This document shows positions 616-14,184 of a stretch of 14,184 bases of DNA, piece after piece. The translations under genes were made by a program, and so were the position numbers. The stretch comes from Candidatus Izemoplasmatales bacterium (GTDB lineage: Bacteria > Bacillota_I > Bacilli_A > Izemoplasmatales > Hujiaoplasmataceae), in contig JBFXGX010000037.1 of NCBI GenBank assembly GCA_050177605.1, positions 1 to 14,184 of the forward strand, written 5' to 3'. The notes beneath the pieces are model-generated. The model saw nothing but the letters and a program-made list of their open reading frames with translations. It had not been told where the DNA came from and did not search any database. How positions within the stretch are numbered: the first letter of the stretch is position 1; each line of letters starts with the position of its first letter.

Positions 616-1596
616 ATGGATCGATACTTAGAAATGAAGCGTCAATTGCTAAAGATGGCCTCAATCAATCATATTCCCATTCTTGGTGAGTTTGAACTCA
701 CCAGTTTTTGTAATGCATCATGTTATATGTGTTACGTTGCAGGAAGAAAGAAAGATTTTCCAAGTTACCTACAATGGATGGCCCTATTTGAAGAGGCAGT
801 AAAGTGCGGAATGCTCTATGCTTTGCTGACGGGTGGAGAAGTATTTGCCCATCCTGATTTTTGCAAAATCTACGAGGACCTTTATGATTTAGGTGTCAAA
901 ATCACTGTGTATACGAATGGAAGTCTATTAAGTGATGCCATTCTTGAAACCTTTAAAAAGCGACCACCTGAAATGATTGCGATTACGCTCTATGGCGCAA
1001 ATAATGATACCTATAAGAAGATTACATCTTCCCTTACGTTTGATGAGGTGAAAGACAGTATTGCGGCCTTGCAAGAGAGTCACTTACCACTTCAAATCAG
1101 AACGATTCCATTACGTGAAATCTATGAGACGTTAGATGAAGTCATCGCATATGCGAAAAGTATCGAACTATCTCTTGGATACTTTTTATATGTCTCAAAA
1201 GGAAGTTACGATTTAAATAAGCGATTAAATACGACAGAACTTATCGATTTTGAAAAGAGAATTCGATCTGCGTTTTCAAAGTTTGAAGAAAGAAAAGATT
1301 TTAATACATTTGTAAGTTGTCAAGCGTTAAAAAATAGTTTTTATATCAATTCAAAATTTGAGATGAGGGCTTGTTCATTAGCCATTTATCCTAGTAAAAA
1401 AGTGGAAGTAGGAAACTTCTTACGTACTTTTTTAGAACTGGAAGAAATGTGGGAAGAACTGGACACAGATCACTGCAGTTCTTGTAATGTTGTGAAGAGT
1501 TGCATCGCATGTAAAGCACGAAAGATGTTAGAAACTGATAAACAATGTTCACCTTACCTTTTAGATATTGCGAAAGGTAGGGTTCAAAATGAATAA
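616..1596 (+). CDS. Radical SAM protein with C-terminal SPASM-like domain (putative peptide maturase)
   Basis: CxxxCxxC (CNASCYMC), LTGGE and YTNG motifs. C-terminal 7-Cys pattern C-x17-C...CxxC-x5-C-x2-C-x11-C. Confidence 0.92.
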   Translation: MDRYLEMKRQLLKMASINHIPILGEFELTSFCNASCYMCYVAGRKKDFPSYLQWMALFEEAVKCGMLYALLTGGEVFAHPDFCKIYEDLYDLGVKITVYTNGSLLSDAILETFKKRPPEMIAITLYGANNDTYKKITSSLTFDEVKDSIAALQESHLPLQIRTIPLREIYETLDEVIAYAKSIELSLGYFLYVSKGSYDLNKRLNTTELIDFEKRIRSAFSKFEERKDFNTFVSCQALKNSFYINSKFEMRACSLAIYPSKKVEVGNFLRTFLELEEMWEELDTDHCSSCNVVKSCIACKARKMLETDKQCSPYLLDIAKGRVQNE

Positions 1597-2446
1597 AGTA
1601 TATAATGTAGCTGGAATTACGCTCACAGTTGATTATCTTTATCCTGACCTTCTAGAAAAAAGTCTTGAGCAATACATAACCAGTGAAGAAGCAAACTATC
1701 ATATTCGTGTTTCATTAATTGATCATTTTGATATACCAAAAACAGAACCTTCTATCATCTATAAAAATCGTTTTATCTATGAATTAGAGGAAGAATCGAT
1801 TTATGTTATCTATGATAAAACACTCACGCGAATATCGCATGTAATTACCTATCAGAATGAAGGGAAAGATATTTCTTTATATTTGATGAAATCTTCCACT
1901 AAAAATCTTGTGGAGCTAGAGTATCTATTAACAGGCATTTTCTTCTATGAAATTGCTTTAAAAGAAGGATTCATTATTCTCCATGCGAGTGCGGTAAAAC
2001 AGGGTGAGGAAGTTTATTTATTCTCTAGTCCAAGCGGTGGTGGAAAATCTACGATGGCAGAGCTGTTTCTAAAGGAGTACCCTGAAAGTACAATCTTAAA
2101 CGATGATAAACCGATTATCAAGCAACGCGGGAATGAATTTTATGTATACGGAACGCCATGGAGTGGAAAAACTCAAACGAACATGAATGATGAAGGTCAT
2201 CTTCATTCAATCATCTTTTTAAAACAAGCTCCGTTCAATCAAGTATCGCCGCTCTCGCCAAGATTAAAGATTGAACAAATGTACCGCAATATGTTCCGTC
2301 CTCGTGAGGAAGCAGAGAATGTCAAGGTAGCCACTATGGTCGAAAAATGCATTGCGAGAACAAGAATCATCCAGTATGAGTTTATCAATCATCCATCCGC
2401 AGCACAGTATATTTACAAGTGGATCAAGAAGGAGCAAATCAAATGA
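1589..2446 (+). CDS. HPr-kinase-related P-loop kinase (ScmC/PadeK-like)
   Basis: LHASAV, Walker A SPSGGGKST, LNDDKPII and VYGTPWSG motifs. ATG 1589 follows AAGGTAGG and overlaps the radical SAM stop, so it is preferred over the TTG at 1568. Confidence 0.8.
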   Translation: MNKVYNVAGITLTVDYLYPDLLEKSLEQYITSEEANYHIRVSLIDHFDIPKTEPSIIYKNRFIYELEEESIYVIYDKTLTRISHVITYQNEGKDISLYLMKSSTKNLVELEYLLTGIFFYEIALKEGFIILHASAVKQGEEVYLFSSPSGGGKSTMAELFLKEYPESTILNDDKPIIKQRGNEFYVYGTPWSGKTQTNMNDEGHLHSIIFLKQAPFNQVSPLSPRLKIEQMYRNMFRPREEAENVKVATMVEKCIARTRIIQYEFINHPSAAQYIYKWIKKEQIK

Positions 2447-2712
2447 AACTAAAAAAAGGATATGTCGTGAGAGAAATCGCAAATGAAATCATTGTGGTTC
2501 CTACAGGAGAAGAAGCTATTCATTTTAATGGGATTATGACACTCAATAAAACGGGAAAAACTTTGTTTGAAGCCCTTCTTAGCGATCAAACAATTGAATC
2601 TTTATTAGAAATCATCTTGAATAAATATGATATTGATAAAGCAAAAGCTTTACAAGATATTGAAAGTTTTATTACTGTCTTAAAGAAAAAGGAACTATTA
2701 AGGGATGAATAA
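2443..2712 (+). CDS. PqqD-family protein / stand-alone RiPP recognition element (RRE)
   Basis: 89 aa with VVREIANEIIVVP...LNKTGKTLFEAL...ILNKYDIDKAKALQDIESFITVLKKKELL pattern. RBS AAGGAG at 2429-2434 and ATGA overlap with the kinase stop. Confidence 0.92.
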   Translation: MKLKKGYVVREIANEIIVVPTGEEAIHFNGIMTLNKTGKTLFEALLSDQTIESLLEIILNKYDIDKAKALQDIESFITVLKKKELLRDE

Positions 2713-3160
2713 AGAAGTTTCCATCAAAGAGTTATCTCCATTAATCAAATCAAAAATAGATGAAGGCGGAGAGGTATATCTTCAAGTAAAAGGAGGATCA
2801 ATGTATCCTTTCTTTTTAGATGGAAAAACAATCGTTTGTCTTTCAAAGATCAAGGGTCGTTTCAAAAAGAATCAAGTTGTTTTATTTGAAAAAAACGGTG
2901 TCTACGGATTACACCGAATTATCAATGTTCATGATGATTATCTTACCACGAGAGGTGACGCATTAATTCAAAAAGAAAATGTCTTAAAAAGAGATGTGAT
3001 TGGTATCGTGACTTCTTTTAAGACAAAGAAAAAAGAAGTCACGACGAACAACTTCTTTTATCTATGTTTGGTCACTTTATGGCGCCTCACGTTCGCTTTA
3101 CGTCGTGCAAAACTTTTTTTCTTAAGAAAGGTGGTTAAATATGGACAACCTCACTCTTAA
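2705..3160 (+). CDS. S24/S26-family peptidase (Ser-His type), putative leader peptidase
   Basis: VKGGSMYPF (catalytic Ser), LHRII (His) and TRGDA motifs. No N-terminal transmembrane segment; hydrophobic/basic C-terminal tail. Overlaps both neighbours. Confidence 0.85.
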   Translation: MNKEVSIKELSPLIKSKIDEGGEVYLQVKGGSMYPFFLDGKTIVCLSKIKGRFKKNQVVLFEKNGVYGLHRIINVHDDYLTTRGDALIQKENVLKRDVIGIVTSFKTKKKEVTTNNFFYLCLVTLWRLTFALRRAKLFFLRKVVKYGQPHS

Positions 3161-4319
3161 TTTATTGAGTCTTGTTAATTCAAGTCTGAAGCAAGAACCT
3201 TCAGAGATTGTTTTAACTAAGGAAATGTACAAAATCGCAAAAGAAAATGGCTTATCTGGAACCCTTTTTCCTGCATTGAAAAAAGAGATTCAAGAAAGTG
3301 ATGTTTACTCGCTGGTTCAAAAGGACTACTATGAATTTATCTCGAAAGATACAGTGCAAATGCAGGCGATTGAAGATTTAACTTCTTTATTTGAAGAAAA
3401 CCATATTGAACACATCTTCTTAAAAGGTTCAGTGCTCAAAAAAGTCTATCCAGCATCTTACATGCGCTCTATGGGCGATATCGATTTCTTAGTAACAAAC
3501 GAAAAAATGAACCTTGTTCATCAAGTGCTTGAAGAAAGCGGATATATAAACTGGTCTAATTCGAAAGCACATGATTGTTTCCATAAAAATAGACAAGTGT
3601 TTTTGGAAGCTCATCCGACCCTCAATTCGGATTTTGATGATGCCTATAAAAATCTTTTTAAAGATGTATGGTCCACTTGTACAAGTGAAGGATATGTTTA
3701 CAAGATGAACCATGAAACAGAGATTACTTACCTTTTATTTCATATGGTGAAACATTTATCATCTTCAGGAATTGGACTACGAAATATTCTTGATTTATCA
3801 CTCTACCTTGAAAAATATGACAGTGAAATCAGTGTTGATTATTTATATAGCCTCCTCGAGAAAGCAAAACTTGAACGATTTGCACAAAATATTTTTTCGC
3901 TTTGTATTCTTTACTTCAAACCAAACCTTCTTCAAGACTATTTAAAAAACTATCAAATGGATCAAGCATTGATCGAAGAAGCAACCACGTTTATTCTCAC
4001 TTCAGGAGTACATGGAAAAGGAGAAAATAACAATGCGCATCTTTCCGGAAGTGCCAAACAGTCACTCAAGAAAAACAATGTTGTTATTGGGCGAATTGCT
4101 TATTTAGTTAAACTTGTGTTTCCACCCTTTGACACAATGCGAGGAATGTATCCTGTTCTTCATAAGCATCCTTATCTCTATCCTTTTACCTTTCTCGCCA
4201 GATGGTATAAGATTTTTGTGAAAAAGAGAAAAACAAGTTTTAATAAAATCAAAAAATTAAAAATTACTCACAATGAAATTGAACAAAGAAGATCACTTTA
4301 TGAGCGATTTGGTTTATAA
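3141..4319 (+). CDS. Nucleotidyltransferase family protein (NTP_transf_5-like)
   Basis: FLKGSVLKKVYP...RSMGDIDFLV, LEAH and HMVKHLSSSGIGLRNILDL motifs. RBS AAGGTGG upstream; overlaps the peptidase gene. Confidence 0.88.
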   Translation: MDNLTLNLLSLVNSSLKQEPSEIVLTKEMYKIAKENGLSGTLFPALKKEIQESDVYSLVQKDYYEFISKDTVQMQAIEDLTSLFEENHIEHIFLKGSVLKKVYPASYMRSMGDIDFLVTNEKMNLVHQVLEESGYINWSNSKAHDCFHKNRQVFLEAHPTLNSDFDDAYKNLFKDVWSTCTSEGYVYKMNHETEITYLLFHMVKHLSSSGIGLRNILDLSLYLEKYDSEISVDYLYSLLEKAKLERFAQNIFSLCILYFKPNLLQDYLKNYQMDQALIEEATTFILTSGVHGKGENNNAHLSGSAKQSLKKNNVVIGRIAYLVKLVFPPFDTMRGMYPVLHKHPYLYPFTFLARWYKIFVKKRKTSFNKIKKLKITHNEIEQRRSLYERFGL

Positions 4320-4394
4320 TTTTATCAATTTCAGTGATTATTCTTACATTTTTGTTAAATTCATGTAAATATTTAAAAAATATCGATATTTATG

Positions 4395-4422
4395 TTGTAA
4401 TATGTGATGAATTTGTTACAAT
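4395..4422 (+). promoter_or_regulatory. Putative sigma-A promoter overlapped by inverted repeat TTGTAA-N15-TTACAA
   Basis: TTGTAA 4395-4400, 16-bp spacer, extended -10 TGtTACAAT 4414-4422. Confidence 0.5.
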
Positions 4423-4428
4423 AATATT

Positions 4429-4559
4429 AGTAATTAATAAACATATGTCAAATAAATGGAATTAAGTCAATCGTTTTATTACTTCATGGGGGAGACAAGA
4501 AGTCAGTAATAAACCTTACTTTCTTTTTGTGCATCCTTTCTTGGATGCACATTTTTTTT
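4429..4559 (+). ncRNA. Candidate ~130-nt small RNA or structured leader
   Basis: Lies between a putative promoter and a strong terminator. Contains stem TTTATTACT (4475-4483)/AGTAATAAA (4505-4513) enclosing GGGGGAGAC. No known RNA family recognised. Confidence 0.3.
4528..4559 (+). terminator. Rho-independent terminator
   Basis: Perfect 9-bp stem TGTGCATCC/GGATGCACA, 6-nt loop, then T8. Confidence 0.9.
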
Positions 4560-4643
4560 ATGAGATACGGTAAATGATATTGAATAGTGAACGCTATGAT
4601 AATATATGTTTTAAAAAAATAAGTTCTGAGGGAGAATGTATTT

Positions 4644-4781
4644 ATGACTAAACAAGAATTAAATAAGAAAGAAACTTATGAAACACCTACAATTGAAGTC
4701 GTTGAATTTTCACTTGAAGAGAGTATTGCATTAAGTGGAGATTTTGGTTCAAGCGTAGTTTGTTCAGAAGAGTTGTTTTAG
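4644..4781 (+). CDS. Putative RiPP precursor peptide, 45 aa (MTKQELNKKETYETPTIEVVEFSLEESIALSGDFGSSVVCSEELF)
   Basis: Translated by hand. RBS GAGGGAG at 4628-4634, ATG 4644, TAG 4779-4781. YxxPxI leader motif of the type bound by RREs. Nearest ORF with a clear RBS downstream of the RRE/rSAM/peptidase operon. Confidence 0.85.
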   Translation: MTKQELNKKETYETPTIEVVEFSLEESIALSGDFGSSVVCSEELF

Positions 4782-4790
4782 GGGGACAGT

Positions 4791-7076
4791 ATGATGAAAA
4801 AACTATTTGGTTTTATCAGTCTTATCTTATTGTTTGGCATCGCGACAGCCTTTCATTATGTTGAAGCAGCCTCACCAGTGGGAACACCAGTCGACTTATC
4901 TATTACTTCATATTTTGATGAATTTAATAAAGACGTTGTTCCACTAACAAATGTTGCCTACGGATCTAAAATTGCATTTGACAGTAGTGTTACTGCAGAT
5001 GATTCAAGTTACACATTTTTATTTTGGCAAGTTAATGGTACTGTAAACTGGAATTTAGCAAAAGATTATCAGTTCACTGTAACGAATAATCTAGATTTAG
5101 TTGCTATGTTCAAGCCAGCTGATAAATTCGCAGTAGTCTTTATGGACTCAAACGGTGAATTAATTGATGTTAAATATGTTAATTCTGGTGTAGCCGCAGT
5201 AGAACCTGATACTACTAACTATACAAAAGTTGGATTTGTCTATGATTCAACAAAATGGAGTCAAGACTTTTCAAATGTTACTTCTGACATCGTAACCTAT
5301 CTTCAATATGTTCCAGTTGAAACGCCTAATACATTTACATTATCAGTTGAAAATGGATCAGACATAACAGTAGGTGGAACTGGTACATATGATTTTAATA
5401 AGGTTGTAACAGTAGAAGCAGATGCAAATGATTCTTACCAAGTGTTTAAATATTGGAGAGTTGATAGTAGAGTTGTCTCATACAGTTCTACTTATTCATT
5501 CACTATGTTACAAAATACAACTGTAACTGCAGTATATGATTCTTCCGCATTTGTGGATGCTCCAATTGTAACGATCACTCCAGCATTAAGTTTGAGAGGC
5601 GGATATGATTCATTCTTGGGTCAATACTATCTTCCTGCTGGATATACTTATGTTGAACATGGATTAATTAATAATGTTTCAGTTTCAAATCCTACTCTTG
5701 ATAGTGATGGAACTGTTCAACATGCTGGAACGAAGATTAATGCCTCTACGAATGAATTCCTTATCAGTTTAGATAACACTTCCAGTTTAGGCAATGTTAG
5801 AGGTTATTTAGTATACAAAGATGGTTCTGATGTTTTACATACAATTTATTCTGAAGTAGAAACTCCAAAATTATTTATAAGTGAATATGGTGAAAATGGT
5901 ACAAATAAATGGATTGAATTATACAATCCAACAAATGAGACCATTGATTTATCACAATATTCTGTTGATACTTCCAATGCTTCATCAATACCACTCTCTG
6001 GTTCTTTAAATAGTGGAGATACTTATTCGATATGTAATTCTTCGCCATCCTCAGAAGTCAGTTCATATTGTGATCTAACTACATCAGGAATCAATTTCAA
6101 TGGTGATGATGCTGTAAGTCTTTATTATGGATCTGTGATTATTGATACAATTGGTGCATACTCAGGTATGGTTACAAATGAATTAGCAGATATGACATTA
6201 ATACGAAAACTATCAACAGTATCTGGAAACGCCAATTTCAATATAAATGATTGGATAGAAAAACCGATTTATTATTACGATAATATCGATGTTTGGGGAT
6301 TCCCTTCTGTTGAGTCAGTATCAATTTCTGGAGAAATCAGTGTTGCTGCTGGAAGTTCAATTCAATTAACGGCGACAGTTGAGCCACATGGCTCCGACAC
6401 ATCTGTAACATGGTCTTCAAGTAACGAATCCGTCGCAACAGTAAATAGTGCTGGGCTAGTTTCCGGGGTCTCAGAAGGGACTATTATAATTACTGCTACA
6501 TCAGTCGAAAATGAAAACATTTTTAATACGTATGAAATCACTGTTTCTTCTTCGAGTTCAATCACATCTACGATAATTATTTATGAAATCTATGGTTCTG
6601 GAGGTAATACGGGTGCAGTATATAAATCTGATTATGTAATTTTATATAATACAACTAGCTCCAGTATTGATTTAACGGGCTATTCTATTCAATATGCAAG
6701 TTCGACTGGAACTACCTTCCAGGTTCAAGCTTTATCCGGATCAATAGCAGCTAATGGATATTTTGTTATTCGTCTAAAAACCGGAACTGTAGGCAGCGAT
6801 CTTCCTTCATACAATGTTAGTGGAACAATAGATATGTCGGGGACAAAAGGAAAGGTTGCATTAGTTAATTCTACTACAGCACTTAGTGGATTAACAGCGT
6901 CTTCCTCATCATCTGTCATTGATTTTGTTGGATATGGTTCTGCAAATGATTATGAAACTAGTGCTGCTCCTGCACCAGGAACTACTACCTCTGTACAGCG
7001 TACTTCTTTTGTTGATACGGATAATAATTCAGCTGACTTCGCAGCTGTTACTGCAGATTTATCTTATTTACCTTAA
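4791..7076 (+). CDS. Secreted modular protein: N-terminal beta-rich repeat module, lamin-tail domain (LTD), Ig-like Big_2 domain, second LTD
   Basis: Signal peptide MKKLFGFISLILLFGIATAFHYVEA. LFISEYGE...WIELYNPTNETIDLSQY (LTD); IQLTATVEP...VTWSSSNESVATVNSAGLVSGVSEGT (Big_2); IIIYEIYGSGGN...DFVGYG...DTDNNSADF (LTD). No catalytic domain recognised. Confidence 0.85.
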   Translation: MMKKLFGFISLILLFGIATAFHYVEAASPVGTPVDLSITSYFDEFNKDVVPLTNVAYGSKIAFDSSVTADDSSYTFLFWQVNGTVNWNLAKDYQFTVTNNLDLVAMFKPADKFAVVFMDSNGELIDVKYVNSGVAAVEPDTTNYTKVGFVYDSTKWSQDFSNVTSDIVTYLQYVPVETPNTFTLSVENGSDITVGGTGTYDFNKVVTVEADANDSYQVFKYWRVDSRVVSYSSTYSFTMLQNTTVTAVYDSSAFVDAPIVTITPALSLRGGYDSFLGQYYLPAGYTYVEHGLINNVSVSNPTLDSDGTVQHAGTKINASTNEFLISLDNTSSLGNVRGYLVYKDGSDVLHTIYSEVETPKLFISEYGENGTNKWIELYNPTNETIDLSQYSVDTSNASSIPLSGSLNSGDTYSICNSSPSSEVSSYCDLTTSGINFNGDDAVSLYYGSVIIDTIGAYSGMVTNELADMTLIRKLSTVSGNANFNINDWIEKPIYYYDNIDVWGFPSVESVSISGEISVAAGSSIQLTATVEPHGSDTSVTWSSSNESVATVNSAGLVSGVSEGTIIITATSVENENIFNTYEITVSSSSSITSTIIIYEIYGSGGNTGAVYKSDYVILYNTTSSSIDLTGYSIQYASSTGTTFQVQALSGSIAANGYFVIRLKTGTVGSDLPSYNVSGTIDMSGTKGKVALVNSTTALSGLTASSSSSVIDFVGYGSANDYETSAAPAPGTTTSVQRTSFVDTDNNSADFAAVTADLSYLP

Positions 7077-7093
7077 TTACTTTGGTTTTACTC

Positions 7094-7123
7094 GCCACGA
7101 TTTTTCGAAATCGTGGCTTTTTT
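7094..7123 (+). terminator. Rho-independent terminator
   Basis: 10-bp stem GCCACGATTT/AAATCGTGGC with TTCG loop, then T6. Confidence 0.92.
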
Positions 7124-7133
7124 CTTTTCAAAC

Positions 7134-7153
7134 TTACATCTTTGATGTAAAAT
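7134..7153 (+). promoter_or_regulatory. Palindrome TTACATC-N3-GATGTAA overlapping a putative -10 (TAAAAT 7148-7153)
   Basis: Perfect 7-bp inverted repeat between the terminator and the RBS GGAGGT (7170-7175). Confidence 0.4.
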
Positions 7154-7183
7154 AGAACTATGCCCTTGTGGAGGTACTCATAT

Positions 7184-10100
7184 ATGAAGAAAATCAAATT
7201 ACTCGTATTTACTCTTATTGCTCTTTTTATGCTTAGCAATATCAAAGTAAATGCAGAAACAAATCCTCAAGATAGTTTAGTAAATATTACTGTTAAAACT
7301 TATTTTGATTCAACAAATATCATTACCAATCCTCTTGATCCTATTGCCTATGGCTCTCGGGTTTCTTTCGCAAGTGAATTATCTAGTTTAGAAGGATATT
7401 CATTTGTTTTTTGGATGGTTAATGATATTATTTATCCTGATTTTCAGTTAACTGATAATTTTACAGCGAATGGAAATTCTACAATCACGGCTGTCTTTAA
7501 ACCAAATGATAAAGTCGCTGCGATTTTTCTAGATAGTAATGGGAAATTACTTGAGGTTCAATATGTTACTCCTGGAGATAGTGCTATTGAAATTAGTGAA
7601 TTAAAGTTGCCTTCTAAACCAGGTTATATGATATCTTCAACAAAGTGGAATCATAGTTTATCAAATTTAACAGTAGATACAATCTTTATCTTACAATATG
7701 AGAAAGTAGATAACTCGTCCTACACTGTTTCTGTAACAAATGGAACTGGTGGAGGAAGTTATGAGTTTAATACACAAGCAACTGTCGTTGCTAGTGATGC
7801 AGCTGCAGGAGAATATTTTAATTACTGGAAGAGCGGAGATCGAATTGTTTCTTTATCTCCTAGTTATACTTTTACTGTTTTACAAGACATAGCAGTAGAA
7901 GCAGTATATTCGACTTCAAGTTATCAAGATCAACCATTTGTTTCACTTAGTCCTAAACTAGGTATTCGAGTAGGATATTTATCTTATCTTGGTCAGTTTT
8001 ATCTACCTGAAGGATATACATTAATAGAACACGGAATGGTTGTTTCAACCTCTTCAGGAATTATCAATTTAGGTTCAAGCAGTATTACAAAATATCAAAG
8101 CAATACATTTGTTGCTACAACAAATGAATACTTAATGAGTTTTTCAAATACTAGTATTCAAAGTGTGAGAGCTTATATCATTGTAGAAGATGTAAATGGA
8201 AATTATATGACCATCTACAATGAAGTATTAACTTCTGCATCAACTCCATCTATTGCAGATGATTTGTTCTTCTCATTCTATATGGAAGGATCTAGCTATA
8301 ACAAAGTAGTATCAATTTATAATGGTACTGGAAGTAGTGTTAATTTATCAGAATATTCTGTTCAGTTGTACTCTAATGGAGCAGCCAGTGCATCGCAATC
8401 AATGACATTAAATGGAACATTAGCTAATGGTGATGTTTACGTTATTTCACATTCGTCGGCTATACCAGAAATTCTTGCAATAGCTGATGCGACATCATCT
8501 GCAGTTATTAATTTTAGTGGAGATGATGCGGTAACACTAACACATAATAGTACTATTATTGATACAATTGGACAAGTCGGTGTTGATCCTGGTTCTGCAT
8601 GGGGAACTGGCGATATTACAACTCTGGATCATTCTCTTGTTAGACTTTCGTCTACTACTTCGGGAGACACAGTATACAATGATGCCTATAGTCCAGCAGA
8701 TTATTGGGTAGGCTATGCAAAAGATACTTACTTAGGCTATATTGATACCTTCACAATGGATGGTTCAGGTTCTTCAAAATCAGTTACTGGTTTTGATGCC
8801 TTTATCAATACAATGACTTATAATGCATTATCTACATTAAGTCTTTCAAACTCTTATCTAAAAGTTTATTATGATGATGGTTCATCTTCCATAGAAACCA
8901 TCACTTCAGATATGGTTTCAAACTTTTCAACTTCCGTATCAGGTGACTACACCTTAACAGTTACTTATGGAAGTTTCACTGATACGCTCGATTATCATGT
9001 ACAAAAGATTAATCCAAGTTATACAATACCTACATTTAGTGATACAGAATTAACAAGTGGATTAAGTTTAAATAACATAACGCTTCCTAGTAATTTTTCA
9101 TGGGAAAACCCAAGTGCTTCCTTATCACTTGGAACGCATACCTTTACTGTGACTTATACGCCATCCAATACAGATGCTTATAACACGATTACAGGTATTG
9201 AAGTTTCAATCAACTTTGTTGAAGTTGTGACGCCAATTATCATTTATGAAGTCTATGGTGGTGGTGGAAATGTTAGTGCAACCTATAATCAAGACTATGT
9301 TATTTTATATAACAATACATCATCGAGTATTGATTTAAGTACTTATTCGCTTCAATATGCTTCGACTAGTACTTATACTGTCTTTAATTTATCCGGGACA
9401 ATTATGTCTCATAACTACTTTGTTATTGGATTATTAAAAGGAAGTGTTGGGGAAGACCTAGATGTCGCTCCAAATGTTAGTTTTGGAACGAGTATTGTTG
9501 TCACAGCAGGAAGAATTGCTTTAGTCGATGATCAAAATCAAATTACCGATAAAACAGACGCAAACGTTGTTGATTTTGTTGGATATGGAAGTGCCAGTGA
9601 ATACGAAACTAGTCCAACAGCGACGACATCCGCTTCACTTAGTGCGAAACGTATTTCTTTCTCCGATACCAATGATAATAGTGCTGATTTTACTGTTGGA
9701 ACGCCTAATTTAAGTTATGTTGCTTCAAGTCTTACAGTGACCGGATTCTCAGTCCATAATTTAAAAGCATATTATGAAGTTAGTGAAGCACTTAGTGTTA
9801 CGAATGCTTACTTAATTGTGTCATATAGTAATGGTTCTACATCGCAAGTCGATGTAACAAGTGATATGATTTCTTCCTTTAGTTCATCTACGTTAGGTGA
9901 TTATTCAATGAATGTAACTTATTCTGGAATTACAGAAAGTTACGCCTACCATGTTATTGATTATTCTTCTTTAGGAGAAGTCGAGATTTATTATATCGAT
10001 ATCGGAATTGATGGTGGACCTGCAGGAGAAGCAGCGTTAATCAAAATTGGAGGAATTGATATTTTAATCGATTCTGGTGATGATGATTCGTCAGCCCATA

Positions 10101-11614
10101 CGTCACTTCTTAATTTCTTAAGTACACATGTTACGGATGGTGTTATCGAATATATTATCGCAACCCATCCGCATGCAGATCACATTGGTGGATTCGTGGA
10201 TGTTATGGATAATTATGTTGTCCAAAACGTGATTGAATACTCAACTTCTACCGATTATGTGAGTGCTTTGCGTGCTGAATACGAGGATCGTATTGTGACG
10301 GAAGGTAGTACAGTCTATGATGTTTACACGATGGTCACAAATTCAGAAAATATTATTAACATCATTTCAGGCGTTTCTTTAACTTTCTATAACACTGGAT
10401 ATTTAACAAGTGCAGACCCTAATAATTCAAGTATTGTTTTTGTACTCAATGCATTTGACACCTTAGCTTTATTTAATGGAGACGCAGAAGGCGATCAAGA
10501 AGCGGTTTACGCTCCTTTAGTTGGCGATTTAGATATCTTAAAACTAGGACATCATGGTAGTGCTGCAGGAACAACATCCTTTTTATTAACTGAAACAACA
10601 CCAAATGCGATTGTGGTAAACGATGGTAATTATTTAGGAAATAGTTATGGTCATCCAACCTATACTGCTTTATCACATATTTATAATTATTCTGATAATG
10701 TTCCAGTGTATAGTGTTACAGGTGGCAATGGTGCTTCCTCTGATATTATGCTCGATAGAAACGGTACGCTAACAGTAACGATTTCAAGTGGTGGCTATGT
10801 AGTCACTTCAGAGTATTATGGATACAATCCGATGGAGTTATCTAATACAGCATATTGGAGTACGATAAATACAAGCAATATTGATGGGTATTATTACGCT
10901 GCCGCAACAGGAGAAACAACAGCTTCTGTTTTAAAAGCTTACCTGCATAATATCATTAAAGGTCATCATTCTGTTGGCTATAGTCAAGTAGATGAAAATT
11001 TAGGAATCACAGATGAAGATCCAAATAATGCGAATAATGTGATTTTGTTCTATACTGGAAGAAGTCAAGCTAAATCAACTTTTGGAAGTTTAGTTGATCA
11101 ATGGAATAGAGAACATATTTGGGCTAACTCTCATGGAATTGACGATCAAGAACCAGCCTATTCAGATTTGCATCATTTACGTCCTACCGATGTATCGGTA
11201 AATAGTATTAGAGGAAATCTAGATTTTAGTACCGTCGAGCACATTAGCGCAAATCTTGTTTCGGATACTTACGGGGATTCAATTATAACTAGAAACTATG
11301 AAGATGGTGTTTACTTTGAACCTCGAGATGAAATTAAAGGTGATGTTGCTAGAATGTTACTCTATATGACTGTACGATATGAAGGGGATGTTTCTGGAGA
11401 ACCTGATTTAGAGTTAGTCAATGGCGTTACCACAACTACTTCAAATAATCTTGGAGATTTAGCTACCCTTTTACAGTGGTGTATTGATGATCCTGTGGAT
11501 GATACTGAAAGACTTAGAAATGAAGCAATTTTCGGTATTCAAAATAACCGAAATCCATTCATTGATCACCCTGAATTAATTTATATCTTATATAGTAGTG
11601 AATTAGGAGTATAA
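7184..11614 (+). CDS. Large secreted multidomain nuclease: N-module, 2x LTD, Ig-like (Big_3-type) domains, ComEC-like MBL-fold hydrolase, C-terminal Endonuclease I domain
   Basis: Start placed at ATG 7184 (RBS GGAGGT; signal peptide MKKIKLLVFTLIALFMLSNIKVNA). MBL motifs ILIDSG, THPHADHIGG, GDAE, GHHGS, YGHP. Endonuclease I motifs WNREHIW, DLHHLRP, FEPRDEIKGDVARMLLYM, QNNRNPFIDHP. Confidence 0.9.
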   Translation: MKKIKLLVFTLIALFMLSNIKVNAETNPQDSLVNITVKTYFDSTNIITNPLDPIAYGSRVSFASELSSLEGYSFVFWMVNDIIYPDFQLTDNFTANGNSTITAVFKPNDKVAAIFLDSNGKLLEVQYVTPGDSAIEISELKLPSKPGYMISSTKWNHSLSNLTVDTIFILQYEKVDNSSYTVSVTNGTGGGSYEFNTQATVVASDAAAGEYFNYWKSGDRIVSLSPSYTFTVLQDIAVEAVYSTSSYQDQPFVSLSPKLGIRVGYLSYLGQFYLPEGYTLIEHGMVVSTSSGIINLGSSSITKYQSNTFVATTNEYLMSFSNTSIQSVRAYIIVEDVNGNYMTIYNEVLTSASTPSIADDLFFSFYMEGSSYNKVVSIYNGTGSSVNLSEYSVQLYSNGAASASQSMTLNGTLANGDVYVISHSSAIPEILAIADATSSAVINFSGDDAVTLTHNSTIIDTIGQVGVDPGSAWGTGDITTLDHSLVRLSSTTSGDTVYNDAYSPADYWVGYAKDTYLGYIDTFTMDGSGSSKSVTGFDAFINTMTYNALSTLSLSNSYLKVYYDDGSSSIETITSDMVSNFSTSVSGDYTLTVTYGSFTDTLDYHVQKINPSYTIPTFSDTELTSGLSLNNITLPSNFSWENPSASLSLGTHTFTVTYTPSNTDAYNTITGIEVSINFVEVVTPIIIYEVYGGGGNVSATYNQDYVILYNNTSSSIDLSTYSLQYASTSTYTVFNLSGTIMSHNYFVIGLLKGSVGEDLDVAPNVSFGTSIVVTAGRIALVDDQNQITDKTDANVVDFVGYGSASEYETSPTATTSASLSAKRISFSDTNDNSADFTVGTPNLSYVASSLTVTGFSVHNLKAYYEVSEALSVTNAYLIVSYSNGSTSQVDVTSDMISSFSSSTLGDYSMNVTYSGITESYAYHVIDYSSLGEVEIYYIDIGIDGGPAGEAALIKIGGIDILIDSGDDDSSAHTSLLNFLSTHVTDGVIEYIIATHPHADHIGGFVDVMDNYVVQNVIEYSTSTDYVSALRAEYEDRIVTEGSTVYDVYTMVTNSENIINIISGVSLTFYNTGYLTSADPNNSSIVFVLNAFDTLALFNGDAEGDQEAVYAPLVGDLDILKLGHHGSAAGTTSFLLTETTPNAIVVNDGNYLGNSYGHPTYTALSHIYNYSDNVPVYSVTGGNGASSDIMLDRNGTLTVTISSGGYVVTSEYYGYNPMELSNTAYWSTINTSNIDGYYYAAATGETTASVLKAYLHNIIKGHHSVGYSQVDENLGITDEDPNNANNVILFYTGRSQAKSTFGSLVDQWNREHIWANSHGIDDQEPAYSDLHHLRPTDVSVNSIRGNLDFSTVEHISANLVSDTYGDSIITRNYEDGVYFEPRDEIKGDVARMLLYMTVRYEGDVSGEPDLELVNGVTTTTSNNLGDLATLLQWCIDDPVDDTERLRNEAIFGIQNNRNPFIDHPELIYILYSSELGV

Positions 11615-11615
11615 A

Positions 11616-12509
11616 ATGAGAAAAATTTCGATTTTATTACTTGTCCTCTTCATAGGCACGGTAATGATTGGTTGTAATGAAATAACATCCTCTACAATCT
11701 CTACAACGACCACCACAACGATAACTTCGACTTCAACCACAACGACAGAACCGAATGAAATTTCTTTTACTGGATTTCAGTATGTAGAAGGCATTATTTC
11801 TTGGGACATTATCCCTGATGTGAAATATGATGTCTATGTAAACAATTCGCTTGTTTTAGAAAACGCAACTTCTTATGATACAACATTGCTTGCTAGTGAA
11901 ATGATTTACAAAATACAAGTTCATGCCTCCCTCGGAGAGCTCGTTTCAGATTCTGGGATTATGTTGATTAACCGTATGCAAACTGCACCTGAAGCGGAAC
12001 TGTTAACCCTAGACTTATCAGTTAATCGTGATGAGGCCGTTTATGCAAGTGAAGTAGAGGCTTCTTTAGTTCTAAACGCTGACTTTGTGGAGGTTCCTTA
12101 TACCTATAGTGAAGGAGAGTATCTACTTTCTGCGAGTTATCTAGCAAGTCTTGGATATGGCGACCATGTTTTCTATTTTGTTTTTGAAGACAGTGTTCAT
12201 GCTTTGTTACTAACGATTATAGACACGAGAACACCTAGTTTGATTGGAACCAATCAAATTGCAGTGGATGCTGGAAGTGATGTTGTCGTAGAGTTTAGTT
12301 TATATAATGGATCGTTTGTCTCTTTAAGTGGCAACGATATCACAACGGAGGACTATAGTATCGTTTCAGGTATTCTTACGATCGATGGAAGTTATATCCA
12401 AAATAAGTTTGTGAATGAACCTGGAAGAACAACACTCATTCTCAGTTATACTTTACAAGCAGCGGATAGTATCATCATTGGATATTTATTCATTACTCTA
12501 AATGATTAA
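11616..12509 (+). CDS. Lipoprotein with Thr-rich linker and possible X2-like Ig/carbohydrate-binding modules
   Basis: Lipobox MIGC, linker TSSTISTTTTTTITSTSTTTT, X2-like segments (YLLSASYLASLGYGDH; DYSIVSGILTIDGSYI). RBS AGGAG lies inside the end of the nuclease gene; 1-bp gap. Confidence 0.75.
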   Translation: MRKISILLLVLFIGTVMIGCNEITSSTISTTTTTTITSTSTTTTEPNEISFTGFQYVEGIISWDIIPDVKYDVYVNNSLVLENATSYDTTLLASEMIYKIQVHASLGELVSDSGIMLINRMQTAPEAELLTLDLSVNRDEAVYASEVEASLVLNADFVEVPYTYSEGEYLLSASYLASLGYGDHVFYFVFEDSVHALLLTIIDTRTPSLIGTNQIAVDAGSDVVVEFSLYNGSFVSLSGNDITTEDYSIVSGILTIDGSYIQNKFVNEPGRTTLILSYTLQAADSIIIGYLFITLND

Positions 12510-12514
12510 AAATG

Positions 12515-12544
12515 AAACCTTCAAATTTGAAGGTTTTTCTTTTT
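12515..12544 (+). terminator. Probable Rho-independent terminator
   Basis: Perfect 22-bp palindrome AAACCTTCAAATTTGAAGGTTT (12515-12536) followed by a T-rich run. Confidence 0.8.
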
Positions 12545-12658: not shown

Positions 12659-14184
12659 ATGAAGAAAACATTCATACTTTTTTCTCTCCTATTTTTAAGT
12701 ATCATGCTTTCTGGTTGTAGTCTACTACCAACGACGACTGTGACCTCTGATTTGGGAAGTTACACCCAAACATCAACGTCTTTATCTATTTCAGTGAAGG
12801 ATGAAGATATCTACACCTCCGATTATACAGTAGATGATACGATTACGTTTTCGTCTAGTGCTGTCGAAAGCCTAAGTAATCTCGTCACCATCACCGGAAG
12901 TATGGTACTGATTGGTAACGAAGGAACGGTTAATTATTTAACTGATTCTTCTTCAACTTATACAGCTTCAGTAATTGATTCAAATGATGATGTGACAATA
13001 AACGGTGAAGGAACACTCATCATCCAAAGTAATTCTCACAATGGTATCGGCGTGGATGACGATTTTGTCATCACTTCAGGGAATATAGAAATTGATGCAT
13101 ATAATAATGGAATCACAGTGAATAATGACTTTACAATGACTGGTGGAACACTCTCTATCGTTTCAGGCAATGATGGGATCCAAGTTGAAAATCTTGATGA
13201 CGATTTACTAGGAAATATCTTAATTTCAGATGGAACCTTCACAATTAGTGCTTATGGCGATGGAATGGACGCGTCTAATGTTGTCGCAATTTATGGTGGA
13301 ACCTTCACCATTTCCTCAGGGGTAGGGAACTCAAACATTACCCTTGTGAGTGGAAAAGGAATTAAAGCAACAAAGGGAATTAACATCCTCGGTGGTACAT
13401 TTACGATTAGTTCAGCTGATGATAGTTTACACGCAAATAGCGATTTCTATATTCAAGATGGAAGCTTAACGTTATCTTCTAATGATGATGGCATCCACGC
13501 TGATGATACTTTAATCATAAGTGGTGGCACCATTGACATTACAAAAAGTTATGAAGGAATCGAATCAGCCTATGTTACGATAACTGGCGGAACGATTAAA
13601 ATCAAAAGTAGTGATGATGGTATCAACTGTGCCGGTGGCGCAGATTCGAGTAGTAATTGGACGAATTTTGACCAAGTTGAAAATGCGATGTTAACAATTA
13701 GTGGTGGATATATTTATGTCAATGCTTCTGGAGATGGTCTTGACTCCAATGGCAATATGCAAATCAGTGGCGGAACGATCCTCGTTAGTGGCCCAACAGA
13801 TTCTAGCAATGGTGCGATTGATTACAATGGAACATTTAGTATCAGTGGCGGAACCTTGATTGCGGTGGGTGCTTCAGGAATGGCAGAAAACGCAAGTAGT
13901 GCTACTAATCAAGCATCCATTATGATTAACCTATCCACAACGTCCACTTCACTCATTCATTTAGAAGATGAAAGTGGGAATATGGTTATTGACTTCTTAC
14001 CCGCGAAAAGTTATTCCTCCATCGTCATCTCCTCTCCTAGTTTAAGTGTAGGAAACACCTATAAATTATATCTAGGTGGAAGTAGTAGTAATTTAAACAG
14101 TGAAGGATATGCTAATTCAGGGAATTATACTTATGGAACACTGAACCAAAGCTTTACGATTTCATCCAATATAACAAATATTGG
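12659..14184 (+). CDS. Cthe_2159/DUF4353-type beta-helix carbohydrate-binding lipoprotein, 3'-truncated
   Basis: Not in the ORF track because there is no stop in the window. RBS GAGGT, start MKKTFILFSLLFLSIMLSGC (lipobox). Beta-helix repeats DDSLHAN, DDGIHAD, SYEGIES, SDDGIN, GDGLDSNG, NGAIDYNG, GGTLIAVGASGMA. Confidence 0.9.
   Translation, partial: MKKTFILFSLLFLSIMLSGCSLLPTTTVTSDLGSYTQTSTSLSISVKDEDIYTSDYTVDDTITFSSSAVESLSNLVTITGSMVLIGNEGTVNYLTDSSSTYTASVIDSNDDVTINGEGTLIIQSNSHNGIGVDDDFVITSGNIEIDAYNNGITVNNDFTMTGGTLSIVSGNDGIQVENLDDDLLGNILISDGTFTISAYGDGMDASNVVAIYGGTFTISSGVGNSNITLVSGKGIKATKGINILGGTFTISSADDSLHANSDFYIQDGSLTLSSNDDGIHADDTLIISGGTIDITKSYEGIESAYVTITGGTIKIKSSDDGINCAGGADSSSNWTNFDQVENAMLTISGGYIYVNASGDGLDSNGNMQISGGTILVSGPTDSSNGAIDYNGTFSISGGTLIAVGASGMAENASSATNQASIMINLSTTSTSLIHLEDESGNMVIDFLPAKSYSSIVISSPSLSVGNTYKLYLGGSSSNLNSEGYANSGNYTYGTLNQSFTISSNITNI

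Follow-up and report, generated by a model that had tools for sequence, protein, structure and literature searches.

A putative LPP-type peptide-maturation cassette with an additional radical SAM/SPASM enzyme in Candidatus Izemoplasmatales and the coupling of its candidate precursor gene to a secreted beta-repeat protein gene

What do five overlapping enzyme genes and a 45-aa peptide gene behind them produce in a bacterium of the order Izemoplasmatales? The genes lie on contig JBFXGX010000037.1 of a Candidatus Izemoplasmatales genome (1.94 Mb, 66 contigs, 89% complete), and the window that we analyzed is this whole contig of 14,184 bp, which encodes 11 proteins. An original prediction had described here a system for a peptide that is synthesized ribosomally and modified post-translationally (RiPP), consisting of a radical SAM (rSAM)/SPASM enzyme, an HPr-kinase-like protein, a PqqD-type RiPP recognition element (RRE), a signal-peptidase-like enzyme, a nucleotidyltransferase and a short YxxP peptide, and had named no characterized relative of this combination. 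All six open reading frames (ORFs) are present on the + strand within positions 616-4781 (Table 1). The claim of novelty had to be narrowed, as the set of kinase, RRE, SipW-like peptidase and NTP_transf_5 enzyme is that of the pathway for linear polyphosphorylated peptides (LPP), which Popov et al. (Nat Commun 2026; PMC13381572) described for the genes lppA-K-B-S-D-N of Paenibacillus alginolyticus DSM5050. The locus is probably an LPP-type RiPP cassette to which an rSAM/SPASM enzyme has been added and which lacks an exporter gene within the window. As a relative of the LPP pathway the cassette itself is not wholly uncharacterized; new are the rSAM gene, the mostly Cys-bearing core of the peptide and the lack of an exporter in the window.

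For the LPP pathway, Popov et al. reported that LppK in B. subtilis placed up to four phosphates on Ser3 of the core and that LppS cut after Thr-1, both as seen by mass spectrometry, LppS needing LppB and having S29, H68, and D93 as essential residues, and that LppN had no detectable effect (PMC13381572). The pathway releases a peptide and has an exporter, its consensus leader is YxxPxVLxHQxIxFETxxS, its clusters are embedded in capsule or cell-envelope loci, and according to the authors neither its final product nor its biological role is known (PMC13381572). The domain table of that study, which covers 126 loci, gives TIGR02228 126, NTP_transf_5 140, TIGR04249 67, and TIGR04352 65, and the neighbourhood of the peptidase studied there, WP_029196374.1, contains one TIGR04249 and no TIGR04352 (PMC13381572). 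The window and the LPP pathway have in common an ScmC-type, HprK-like kinase (K), a discrete PqqD protein (B), a SipW-like Ser/His peptidase (S), an NTP_transf_5 enzyme (N), the gene order K-B-S...N, and, in the peptide proposed as precursor here, a YxxP leader followed shortly by a conserved Ser; neither has a macrolactam synthetase or a B2 protease, in keeping with a linear product. Since the core domains of the LPP table are all present, K, B, S, and N of the window belong to the same families in the same order. In contrast to the LPP pathway, the window has an extra leading rSAM/SPASM gene and, on its 14 kb, no MsbA-like exporter gene (lppD, below D). Furthermore, the LPP precursor gene is located upstream of the enzyme genes, whereas that of the window lies downstream of them, behind a terminator-like hairpin and tied to a secreted protein gene. 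Its proposed core has about 16 residues and a Cys, compared to 45 residues in LPP, and its host is wall-less.

Our literature search found no description of an rSAM-bearing LPP-type cassette or of its coupling to a secreted-protein gene, although subscription journals and supplements may hold more. The words "radical" and "SPASM" do not occur in the main text of PMC13381572, and its supplement lists Radical_SAM among 834 columns of neighbourhood domains. "Radical SAM" is also absent from the main texts on Hujiaoplasma (PMC10470597) and on DNA degradation by Izemoplasmatales (PMC8289736), and the RRE-Finder paper (PMC7470986) mentions no kinase, nucleotidyltransferase or signal peptidase.

The kinase-like protein belongs to the precomputed family PF27840, which is named ScmC in the protein Atlas. 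H139, G159-K160-T162 of the P-loop, N178-D179-D180, and G195-P197-W198-S199-G200 were invariant in 20 diverse homologues. A PEPCK/HprK-type fold was confirmed by the predicted model (pLDDT 92.6), for which Foldseek returned PEPCK at E ~1e-6 (TMq 0.43-0.53) and HprK/P at 7.5e-6 (1knx) and 3.2e-5 (1kkl); the kinase profile searched against PDB sequences gave P-loop noise and PEPCK at E 0.07 only. Judging from family and modelled fold, this ScmC-family protein corresponds to the HprK-like kinases of the TIGR04249/TIGR04352 type found in LPP clusters.

The PqqD protein matched PF05402 with 45.5 bits (cut-off 23.4), and the lasso PqqD models scored under their cut-offs on it. Its gene overlaps the peptidase gene, which agrees with the discrete RRE beside the peptidase in LPP clusters. 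A profile built from 27 homologues matched TbiB1 (1.3e-8), PbaB1 (9x90_B, 6.9e-7), TfuB1 (2.2e-6), and LppB (9x8z_B, 8.8e-6). Because LppB was matched less strongly than TbiB1 and PbaB1, we do not claim membership in the published LPP clade of RREs.

In the peptidase, G30, S32, M33, P35, H70, R71, G84, and D85 were invariant and E91 was 98% conserved among 49 homologues. We take its GxSMxP, LHR, and GD motifs to be the Ser/His pattern of SipW/Sec11-type S26B enzymes. The best NCBIfam match was TIGR02228, the archaeal-type signal peptidase I (29.7 bits versus 51.85, E 5.2e-7), the family counted 126 times over the 126 LPP loci of the domain table. The spacing of S32 and H70 is LppS-like, and D85 or E91 may serve as the acidic residue. 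By inspection, no N-terminal membrane segment or signal sequence was visible, so that the enzyme should act in the cytoplasm on unfolded peptide substrates. The fourth LPP component was recognized by its domain model, NTP_transf_5 (PF14907, 158.8 bits, cut-off 31.2); 15 homologues conserve LKG...RsmGDID, in which the G-S...D-x-D motif of nucleotidyltransferases is kept. Comparison with PDB sequences gave nothing meaningful for the peptidase and no relative for the NTP_transf_5 protein.

The first enzyme of the operon matched Radical_SAM (PF04055) with 65 bits (cut-off 29.5). Its CxxxCxxC motif (C32, C36, C39) and seven C-terminal Cys residues are kept in 18 of 18 homologues, which indicates a full SPASM domain; there is no N-terminal RRE in the protein and no room for one. 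All NCBIfam matches stayed far under their cut-offs, the top peptide-maturase match being ScmE with 48.1 bits versus 400, and the best PDB sequence matches, SkfB (1.1e-8) and the CteB-type 5v1q (3.9e-4), covered the core only. The subfamily is compact, with approximately 86 clusters at ≥ 38% identity, beyond which similarity falls to about 30%. All its named clusters derive from Izemoplasmatales, Tenericutes, Mycoplasmatota, Acholeplasmataceae or unclassified Bacillota metagenome-assembled genomes (MAGs).

With respect to other known systems, the original prediction had pointed to parts that the window shares with the SynChlorMet cassette and with lasso clusters of the paeninodin type, and these likenesses were borne out by the ScmC-family HPr-kinase-like protein, the nucleotidyltransferase, PqqD, and the rSAM enzyme. 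In the paeninodin and pseudomycoidin pathways, the HPr-kinase homologues PadeK and PsmK phosphorylate a Ser of the precursor and the nucleotidyltransferase PsmN acts on the phosphate (PMC8498205), and in pseudomycoidin it is hexoses, not a nucleotide, that the homologous nucleotidyltransferase attaches to the phosphate (review PMC8498205). A discrete B1 RRE binds the [Y/W]xxP leader in lasso systems (PMC8498205, PMC13381572). Such lasso tailoring sets share with the window the HPr-kinase homologue, the nucleotidyltransferase, the discrete RRE, and the YxxP leader. The window differs in that its peptide does not end in Ser and that an S26-type peptidase replaces the Cys protease. The predicted absence of a lasso cyclase and a B2 protease was also found: the B2 family PF13471 had no match in the 89%-complete genome, and the window contains no gene for a cyclase-like protein or macrolactam synthetase, Asn-synthase-like cyclases not having been searched genome-wide. 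In place of B2, the signal-peptidase-like enzyme is indeed present as the TIGR02228-type Ser/His peptidase. Lasso peptides rely on an Asn-synthase-like cyclase, a transglutaminase-like B2 protease and a core that has Asp/Glu at position 7-9 besides the N-terminal amine. A lasso peptide was rejected as the product, as there is no cyclase in the window and no B2 in the window or genome.

The window shares with SynChlorMet the rSAM/SPASM enzyme, PqqD and an ScmC-family protein, and ScmE is among the best rSAM matches; it differs by one rSAM enzyme rather than two and by the additional peptidase and NTP_transf_5 enzyme. Membership in SynChlorMet was rejected on the scores for ScmE (48.1 bits versus 400), ScmF (40.2 versus 400), and ScmC (24.1 versus 125) and on the single rSAM gene. 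No paper on this cassette turned up in the literature search, and it is known from the NCBIfam models TIGR04249-04251 only. The sactipeptide maturases SkfB and AlbA and the ranthipeptide maturase CteB, enzymes that link Cys sulfur to carbon as a thioether in the core, resemble the window enzyme in an rSAM core with a seven-Cys SPASM domain and in a Cys-bearing peptide substrate recruited through an RRE. Unlike in those systems, the RRE of the window is a separate protein and the core has a single Cys; the likeness of the enzyme is limited to the rSAM core, and thioether chemistry would apply to it by analogy only.

The 45-aa peptide, whose gene is preceded by the ribosome-binding site GAGGGAG, contains the motif Y12-x-x-P15. 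Among 14 homologues from relatives, Y12, P15, F22, S27, I28, A29, S31, and C40 were invariant. When 5.8 billion proteins were searched with a peptide profile, 325 matched at E ≤ 0.01. All of these are unannotated and none has a Pfam family; where a source is named, it is a Candidatus Izemoplasmatales or Izimaplasma MAG or Hujiaoplasma nucleasis. The same profile matched no PDB chain, including the LppA leader. In its own genome the peptide has no paralogue, the other matches (E 0.05 and 0.35) lying inside long ORFs. A Ser follows 19 residues after the Tyr (18 in the LPP logo), and the residues between them differ. We propose M1-A29 as leader and L30-F45 (LSGDFGSSVVCSEELF) as core, with A29-x-S31 resembling the start of the LppA core, A1-Q2-S3, in which S3 is the phospho-acceptor. 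From its conserved features, the peptide is a real precursor candidate and the likely substrate of the operon.

Eight of the 18 first-fetched loci of relatives, and a single locus fetched later, have the order rSAM-K-B-S-N-peptide. Of the remaining loci, most were on short contigs ending inside the cassette, and some deviate in content: a linked peptide gene is missing from one, kinase and PqqD genes are missing from another, and a third has a tandem second copy without peptidase and NTP_transf_5 genes. The original prediction had named homologous operons without a conserved neighbouring YxxP peptide as a result that would speak against it; when this was checked, the peptide was found to be conserved. 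Together with the co-occurrence and the leader family described below, this conservation upholds the view that the genes form a cassette for RRE-dependent peptide maturation, the YxxP peptide being the likely precursor.

The arrangement of two loci is noteworthy. In L020 (G021:C35:74000-93999, positions 4879-12416), two cassettes are found in tandem, the first with rSAM enzyme and kinase fused into one 627-aa ORF followed by PqqD, peptidase, and NTP_transf_5, the second with rSAM enzyme, kinase, and PqqD only, followed by the peptide and an N-domain gene (see below). L044 (CAYLVT010000037.1, 2861-6749) from an Acholeplasmataceae MAG contains kinase, PqqD, peptidase, and NTP_transf_5 genes, a 336-aa ORF that by eye looks like an SGNH/GDSL-type hydrolase, and a Cys-less peptide of the same family; its 6.8-kb contig carries no rSAM gene.

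In a phyletic survey of 158 genomes of the order, the rSAM enzyme was present in 35 genomes and the peptide in 44; 29 genomes had both, 15 the peptide alone, and six the rSAM enzyme alone (70-87% complete). If the rSAM enzyme acts on Cys40, the enzyme and a core Cys should covary. Of the 29 rSAM-positive genomes, 26 had a Cys in the core, as did 7 of the 13 rSAM-negative ones (Fisher p = 0.016, a value overstated by the non-independence of relatives). Cys-less cores, located behind K-B-S-N or B-S-N genes or beside N-domain genes, occur in six rSAM-negative genomes, of which four are 90-99% complete. A strict covariation of Cys with the rSAM gene was tested and found to be partial only.

The peptide gene ends 9 nt before the start (4791) of a gene for a 761-aa protein with a signal-peptide-like N-terminus (by inspection), an N-terminal region at aa 30-355 which we call N-domain, two lamin-tail domains (LTD), and Big_2. 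Pfam recognized LTD, Big_2, and Flg_new_2 in this protein, and one of the N-domain modules fits the InlB B-repeat family. The 1484-aa protein encoded next has the same N-domain and, in addition, an LTD, a metallo-beta-lactamase (ComEC-like) domain, and Endonuclease I (Pfam, NCBIfam). A predicted model of the N-domain (pLDDT 90.2) consists of a string of small beta modules; Foldseek matched it to adhesin stalks and tandem ubiquitin only, with TM below 0.25, and taught us nothing about its function. Extracellular nuclease/lamin-tail "DNA-degradation loci" have been described for Candidatus Izemoplasmatales (PMC8289736), and the 761-aa and 1484-aa proteins together with an HD phosphohydrolase resemble them (PMC8289736).

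The fetched loci contained 36 distinct copies of the peptide gene, of which 34 were assessable; in the other two, the contigs end 83 and 164 nt after the stop codon. In all 34 assessable copies an N-domain gene follows directly 3' on the same strand, and this pairing also holds on contigs without the operon. The gap between the two genes is -43 to +13 nt according to a heuristic estimate of the start codons, and in 33 of the 34 copies the N-domain alignment begins 83-152 nt past the peptide stop, which leaves room for a signal peptide. From these distances, the peptide gene appears to be translationally coupled to the secreted beta-repeat protein gene. The N-domain was found in 45 of the 158 genomes, in 40 of them together with the peptide and in five without it (76-90% complete); four genomes had the peptide only, including two with weak matches and one with a match at a contig edge, and 109 had neither. 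The precursor and the N-domain are gained and lost together.

This coupling raises the question whether the peptide is a substrate of the operon at all. It could instead be a small partner of the secreted-protein operon, with a chaperone-like or regulatory role, and the enzymes could act on a peptide encoded elsewhere. The terminator-like hairpin between operon and peptide gene, the coupling to the downstream gene in 34 of 34 copies even where the operon is absent, and the 15 of 44 peptide-positive genomes without an rSAM gene fit such a role. We nevertheless regard it as quite improbable, as the peptide has the YxxP motif of RRE ligands and a leader of the same family as peptides directly beside Clostridial K-B-S genes, the operon and its flanks showed no further conserved small ORF, and in the rSAM-less relatives L127, L128, and L135 the peptide gene still follows K-B-S-N or B-S-N genes. 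A predicted complex of RRE and peptide weakly supports the peptide as substrate. It scored 0.41 compared to 0.02 for the best control, with runs agreeing in ≥ 92% of the contacts and a partner pLDDT of ≥ 53. Of 157 solved complexes, 116 reach the mark for such complexes, as do 2 of 215 mismatches; with a score of ≤ 0.60, however, only 18 of the solved ones do so, along with both of these mismatches. As solved structures of RRE-leader complexes exist, likeness may explain the pass.

A scan with the kinase profile, using one genome per species, yielded 321 relatives. The best 80 of these 321 loci comprised four from Izimaplasma/Bacilli/Acholeplasmatales MAGs, one from an Acholeplasma MAG, and others mostly from gut and rumen Clostridia. 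Among these 80, PqqD was present in 62, the peptidase in 50, both in 48, and all four enzymes in 18, and an adjacent rSAM homologue was found in three Izemoplasmatales-like loci only, one more having a weak match 8.5 kb away. In 12 hand-picked loci with a recognizable peptide and long flanks, Pfam gave the order kinase-PqqD-peptidase-ABC exporter-NTP_transf_5 (e.g., L085, L089, L108) and no cyclase or B2. Small acidic ORFs with a K/YxxPxhEhxxFxxEDhhxxS leader adjoin the kinase gene in Clostridial relatives and have Thr at the position matching A29. Since leaders similar to that of the window lie beside Clostridial K-B-S(-D-N) genes, the window leader belongs to a wider precursor family.

In the 12 hand-picked loci, large surface-protein genes often came directly before the peptide gene. 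In L085, L089, L102, L106, L107, and L108 a precursor-like ORF starts ≤ ~50 nt after the stop codon of a gene for a surface protein of 580-2758 aa and precedes K-B-S-D-N. The surface proteins of the hand-picked loci contain Flg_new, Flg_new_2, MBG or M26 peptidase domains, and SLH-domain proteins are adjacent, too. Capsule genes (Wzz, CpsB, Bac_transf, glycosyltransferases) flank several of the loci. Of 66 Clostridial loci with enough flank, 24 had an ORF of ≥ 800 aa no farther than 3.5 kb from the core genes, a rough estimate for which the control, four such ORFs wholly within 350 kb of farther flank, is biased against long ORFs.

The proximity of large surface proteins could also mean that the secreted beta-repeat proteins themselves are the targets of some or all of the enzymes, e.g., for phosphoglycosylation or processing, and that the peptide is an adaptor or decoy. 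The almost perfect co-occurrence of peptide and N-domain (40 genomes with both, 4 and 5 with one, 109 with neither) and the Clostridial LPP-like loci adjoining large surface proteins and capsule genes (24/66 and the 12 hand-picked loci) are in line with this. By inspection, however, the N-termini of the 761-aa and 1484-aa proteins carry no YxxP-type leader, and the peptidase, without a visible anchor or signal sequence, would work in the cytoplasm on unfolded peptides, as shown for LppS (PMC13381572). We therefore hold such a target to be most improbable.

The window lacks an exporter gene, unlike the Clostridial K-B-S-D-N loci, which would also suit an intracellular small molecule or cofactor, made by further trimming of the core and not exported as a peptide. 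PQQ and mycofactocin systems combine an rSAM/SPASM enzyme, a discrete PqqD, and a peptidase, as the window does, and the last residue of the peptide is usually aromatic. Against this origin, which is very unlikely, speak the variable length of the core and its variable end (F, W, Y, or an extension, e.g., GGF or PS), in contrast to the fixed residues of cofactor precursors. In addition, the partner genes encode secreted proteins, and the product released by the homologous LPP pathway, which includes an exporter, is a peptide (PMC13381572).

For the preferred reading as an LPP-type cassette, we infer the following pathway. The discrete PqqD domain would bind the Y12xxP15 strand of the leader of the 45-aa substrate, and the ScmC/HPr-kinase-like enzyme would phosphorylate the invariant Ser31, possibly several times. 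The soluble S26B peptidase, helped by the RRE, would remove the leader, most likely by a cut after Ala29, with Ile28 and Ser31 as alternatives; A29 would be a small -1 residue, as is Thr-1 in LppA. The NTP_transf_5 enzyme may add a group to the phosphate, by analogy more likely a sugar than the nucleotide considered in the original prediction. The rSAM/SPASM enzyme would modify the acidic core of 14-16 residues, most likely at the nearly universal Cys40, e.g., by a thioether link. Both the cleavage site and the phosphorylation site are guesses, given that this leader departs from the LPP logo. With an rSAM/SPASM step joined to the kinase, peptidase, and RRE core, a peptide that is both phosphorylated and cross-linked is a plausible new type of product.

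Several observations weigh against this reading. At the level of the enzymes, the ScmC model TIGR04249 scored below its threshold on the kinase-like protein (24.1 bits versus 125, E 2e-5), as did Peptidase_S24 (PF00717) on the peptidase (21.7 bits versus 23.3, E 1.7e-4). Both assignments are, however, backed by the invariant residues, and that of the kinase-like protein by its modelled fold as well. The RRE profile is nearer to the lasso B1 proteins TbiB1 and PbaB1 than to LppB, the predicted RRE-peptide complex is weak, and the peptide leader ends in SIA-x-S, 1-2 residues longer than FET-xx-S of the LPP logo. At the level of the locus, the hairpin separates the operon from the peptide gene, which itself is tied to the gene downstream, and neither Pfam nor NCBIfam detected an ABC exporter domain among the 11 proteins of the contig. 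Among the relatives, the closest one, of the same genus (L016, G001:C41, ~1930-2187, - strand), has a PqqD frame interrupted by a stop codon that leaves a 45-aa ORF, due to either a sequencing error or decay. Genome G009, 95% complete, keeps rSAM enzyme, peptidase, NTP_transf_5 enzyme, peptide, and N-domain protein, the peptide and N-domain gene pair lying on another contig than the enzymes. Its locus (L018, G009:C28:72000-88000, 4906-7690) has the order rSAM-peptidase-NTP_transf_5 without kinase and PqqD genes; PqqD was not searched genome-wide, and the kinase profile gave a weak match elsewhere only (E 1.3e-4, in a 554-aa frame). Finally, two rSAM-negative genomes (91% and 96% complete) have Cys-bearing cores and no rSAM match even at E ≤ 1e-5, and three rSAM-positive genomes have Cys-less peptides only.

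Because its gene is coupled to that of a secreted protein of the nuclease locus, the product probably acts together with surface proteins and not as a free antibiotic. We tentatively suggest, as a possibility that is far from assured, that the modified peptide is a dedicated partner (ligand, tether or activating factor) of the co-translated secreted protein. In the wall-less Izemoplasmatales it might bind the tandem beta-grasp-like N-domain and hold or organize nuclease and lamin-tail proteins at the cell surface, and LPP-type peptides in general might be accessory factors of large surface proteins. If so, this would provide a first functional handle on a RiPP family of unknown role (PMC13381572). 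The link between precursor gene and secreted beta-repeat protein gene, present in every assessable case, is a genetic rule that points to function, and the niche of these bacteria, which live in sediment and the subsurface, is defined by the DNA-degradation loci to which the beta-repeat proteins belong (PMC8289736). One homologue of the peptide is labelled as a protein of the cultured Hujiaoplasma nucleasis, so that the rule can be tested by peptidomics and genetics and not only in heterologous hosts.

We also considered the acidic peptide as a DNA-mimicking nuclease inhibitor. This idea was set aside as the directly following gene of the window has no nuclease domain, and it is further disfavoured by the adhesin-, protease- or lipase-type partners in Clostridia.

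The coordinates of the features are compiled in Table 1. Each of the five enzyme genes overlaps the next by 4-29 nt, depending on the chosen starts. For the kinase gene, the likely start is an ATG at 1589, which gives the 285-aa form found in the protein database, and for the PqqD gene an ATG at 2443, which gives 89 aa and overlaps the kinase stop as ATGA. The spacer between operon and peptide gene has 324 nt (4320-4643). Its strong hairpin (4528-4551) has a 9-bp stem with five G-C pairs and a 6-nt loop and is followed by TTTTTTTTAT; Rfam at E ≤ 1 matched no RNA element in the spacer. Neither this hairpin nor the 9-nt distance from the peptide gene to the next gene is mentioned in the original prediction.

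Table 1. Features of the 14,184-bp window, with the proposed assignments of the cassette.
Feature	Position	Strand	Length
Radical SAM/SPASM enzyme, first operon gene	616..1596	+	326 aa
ScmC-family P-loop enzyme with predicted HPr-kinase/PEPCK fold (LppK-like)	1568..2446	+	292 aa from TTG
Discrete PqqD-type RRE (LppB/lasso-B1-like)	2419..2712	+	97 aa from GTG
Soluble Ser/His S26B peptidase (SipW/archaeal-type), LppS-like	2705..3160	+	151 aa
NTP_transf_5 nucleotidyltransferase-fold enzyme (LppN/PsmN-like)	3141..4319	+	392 aa
Intrinsic-terminator-like hairpin and T-run between operon and peptide gene	4528..4561	+	
Precursor peptide candidate (LppA-like)	4644..4781	+	45 aa
Secreted protein	4791..7076	+	761 aa
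Secreted nuclease	7160..11614	+	1484 aa

The HD phosphohydrolase is encoded at 10-534 of the window. A sub-threshold match to the Rfam family Phe_leader (12470-12543; 34.1 bits versus 55, E 0.016) sits at the end of a gene for a 297-aa lipoprotein-like protein and is probably a terminator-like chance match. A Cthe_2159-family protein (PF14262) with beta-helix-like repeats is encoded near the cassette in the window (12659-14182) as well as in the relative L018 (7810-9537) and in the Clostridial locus L103 (3303-5039).

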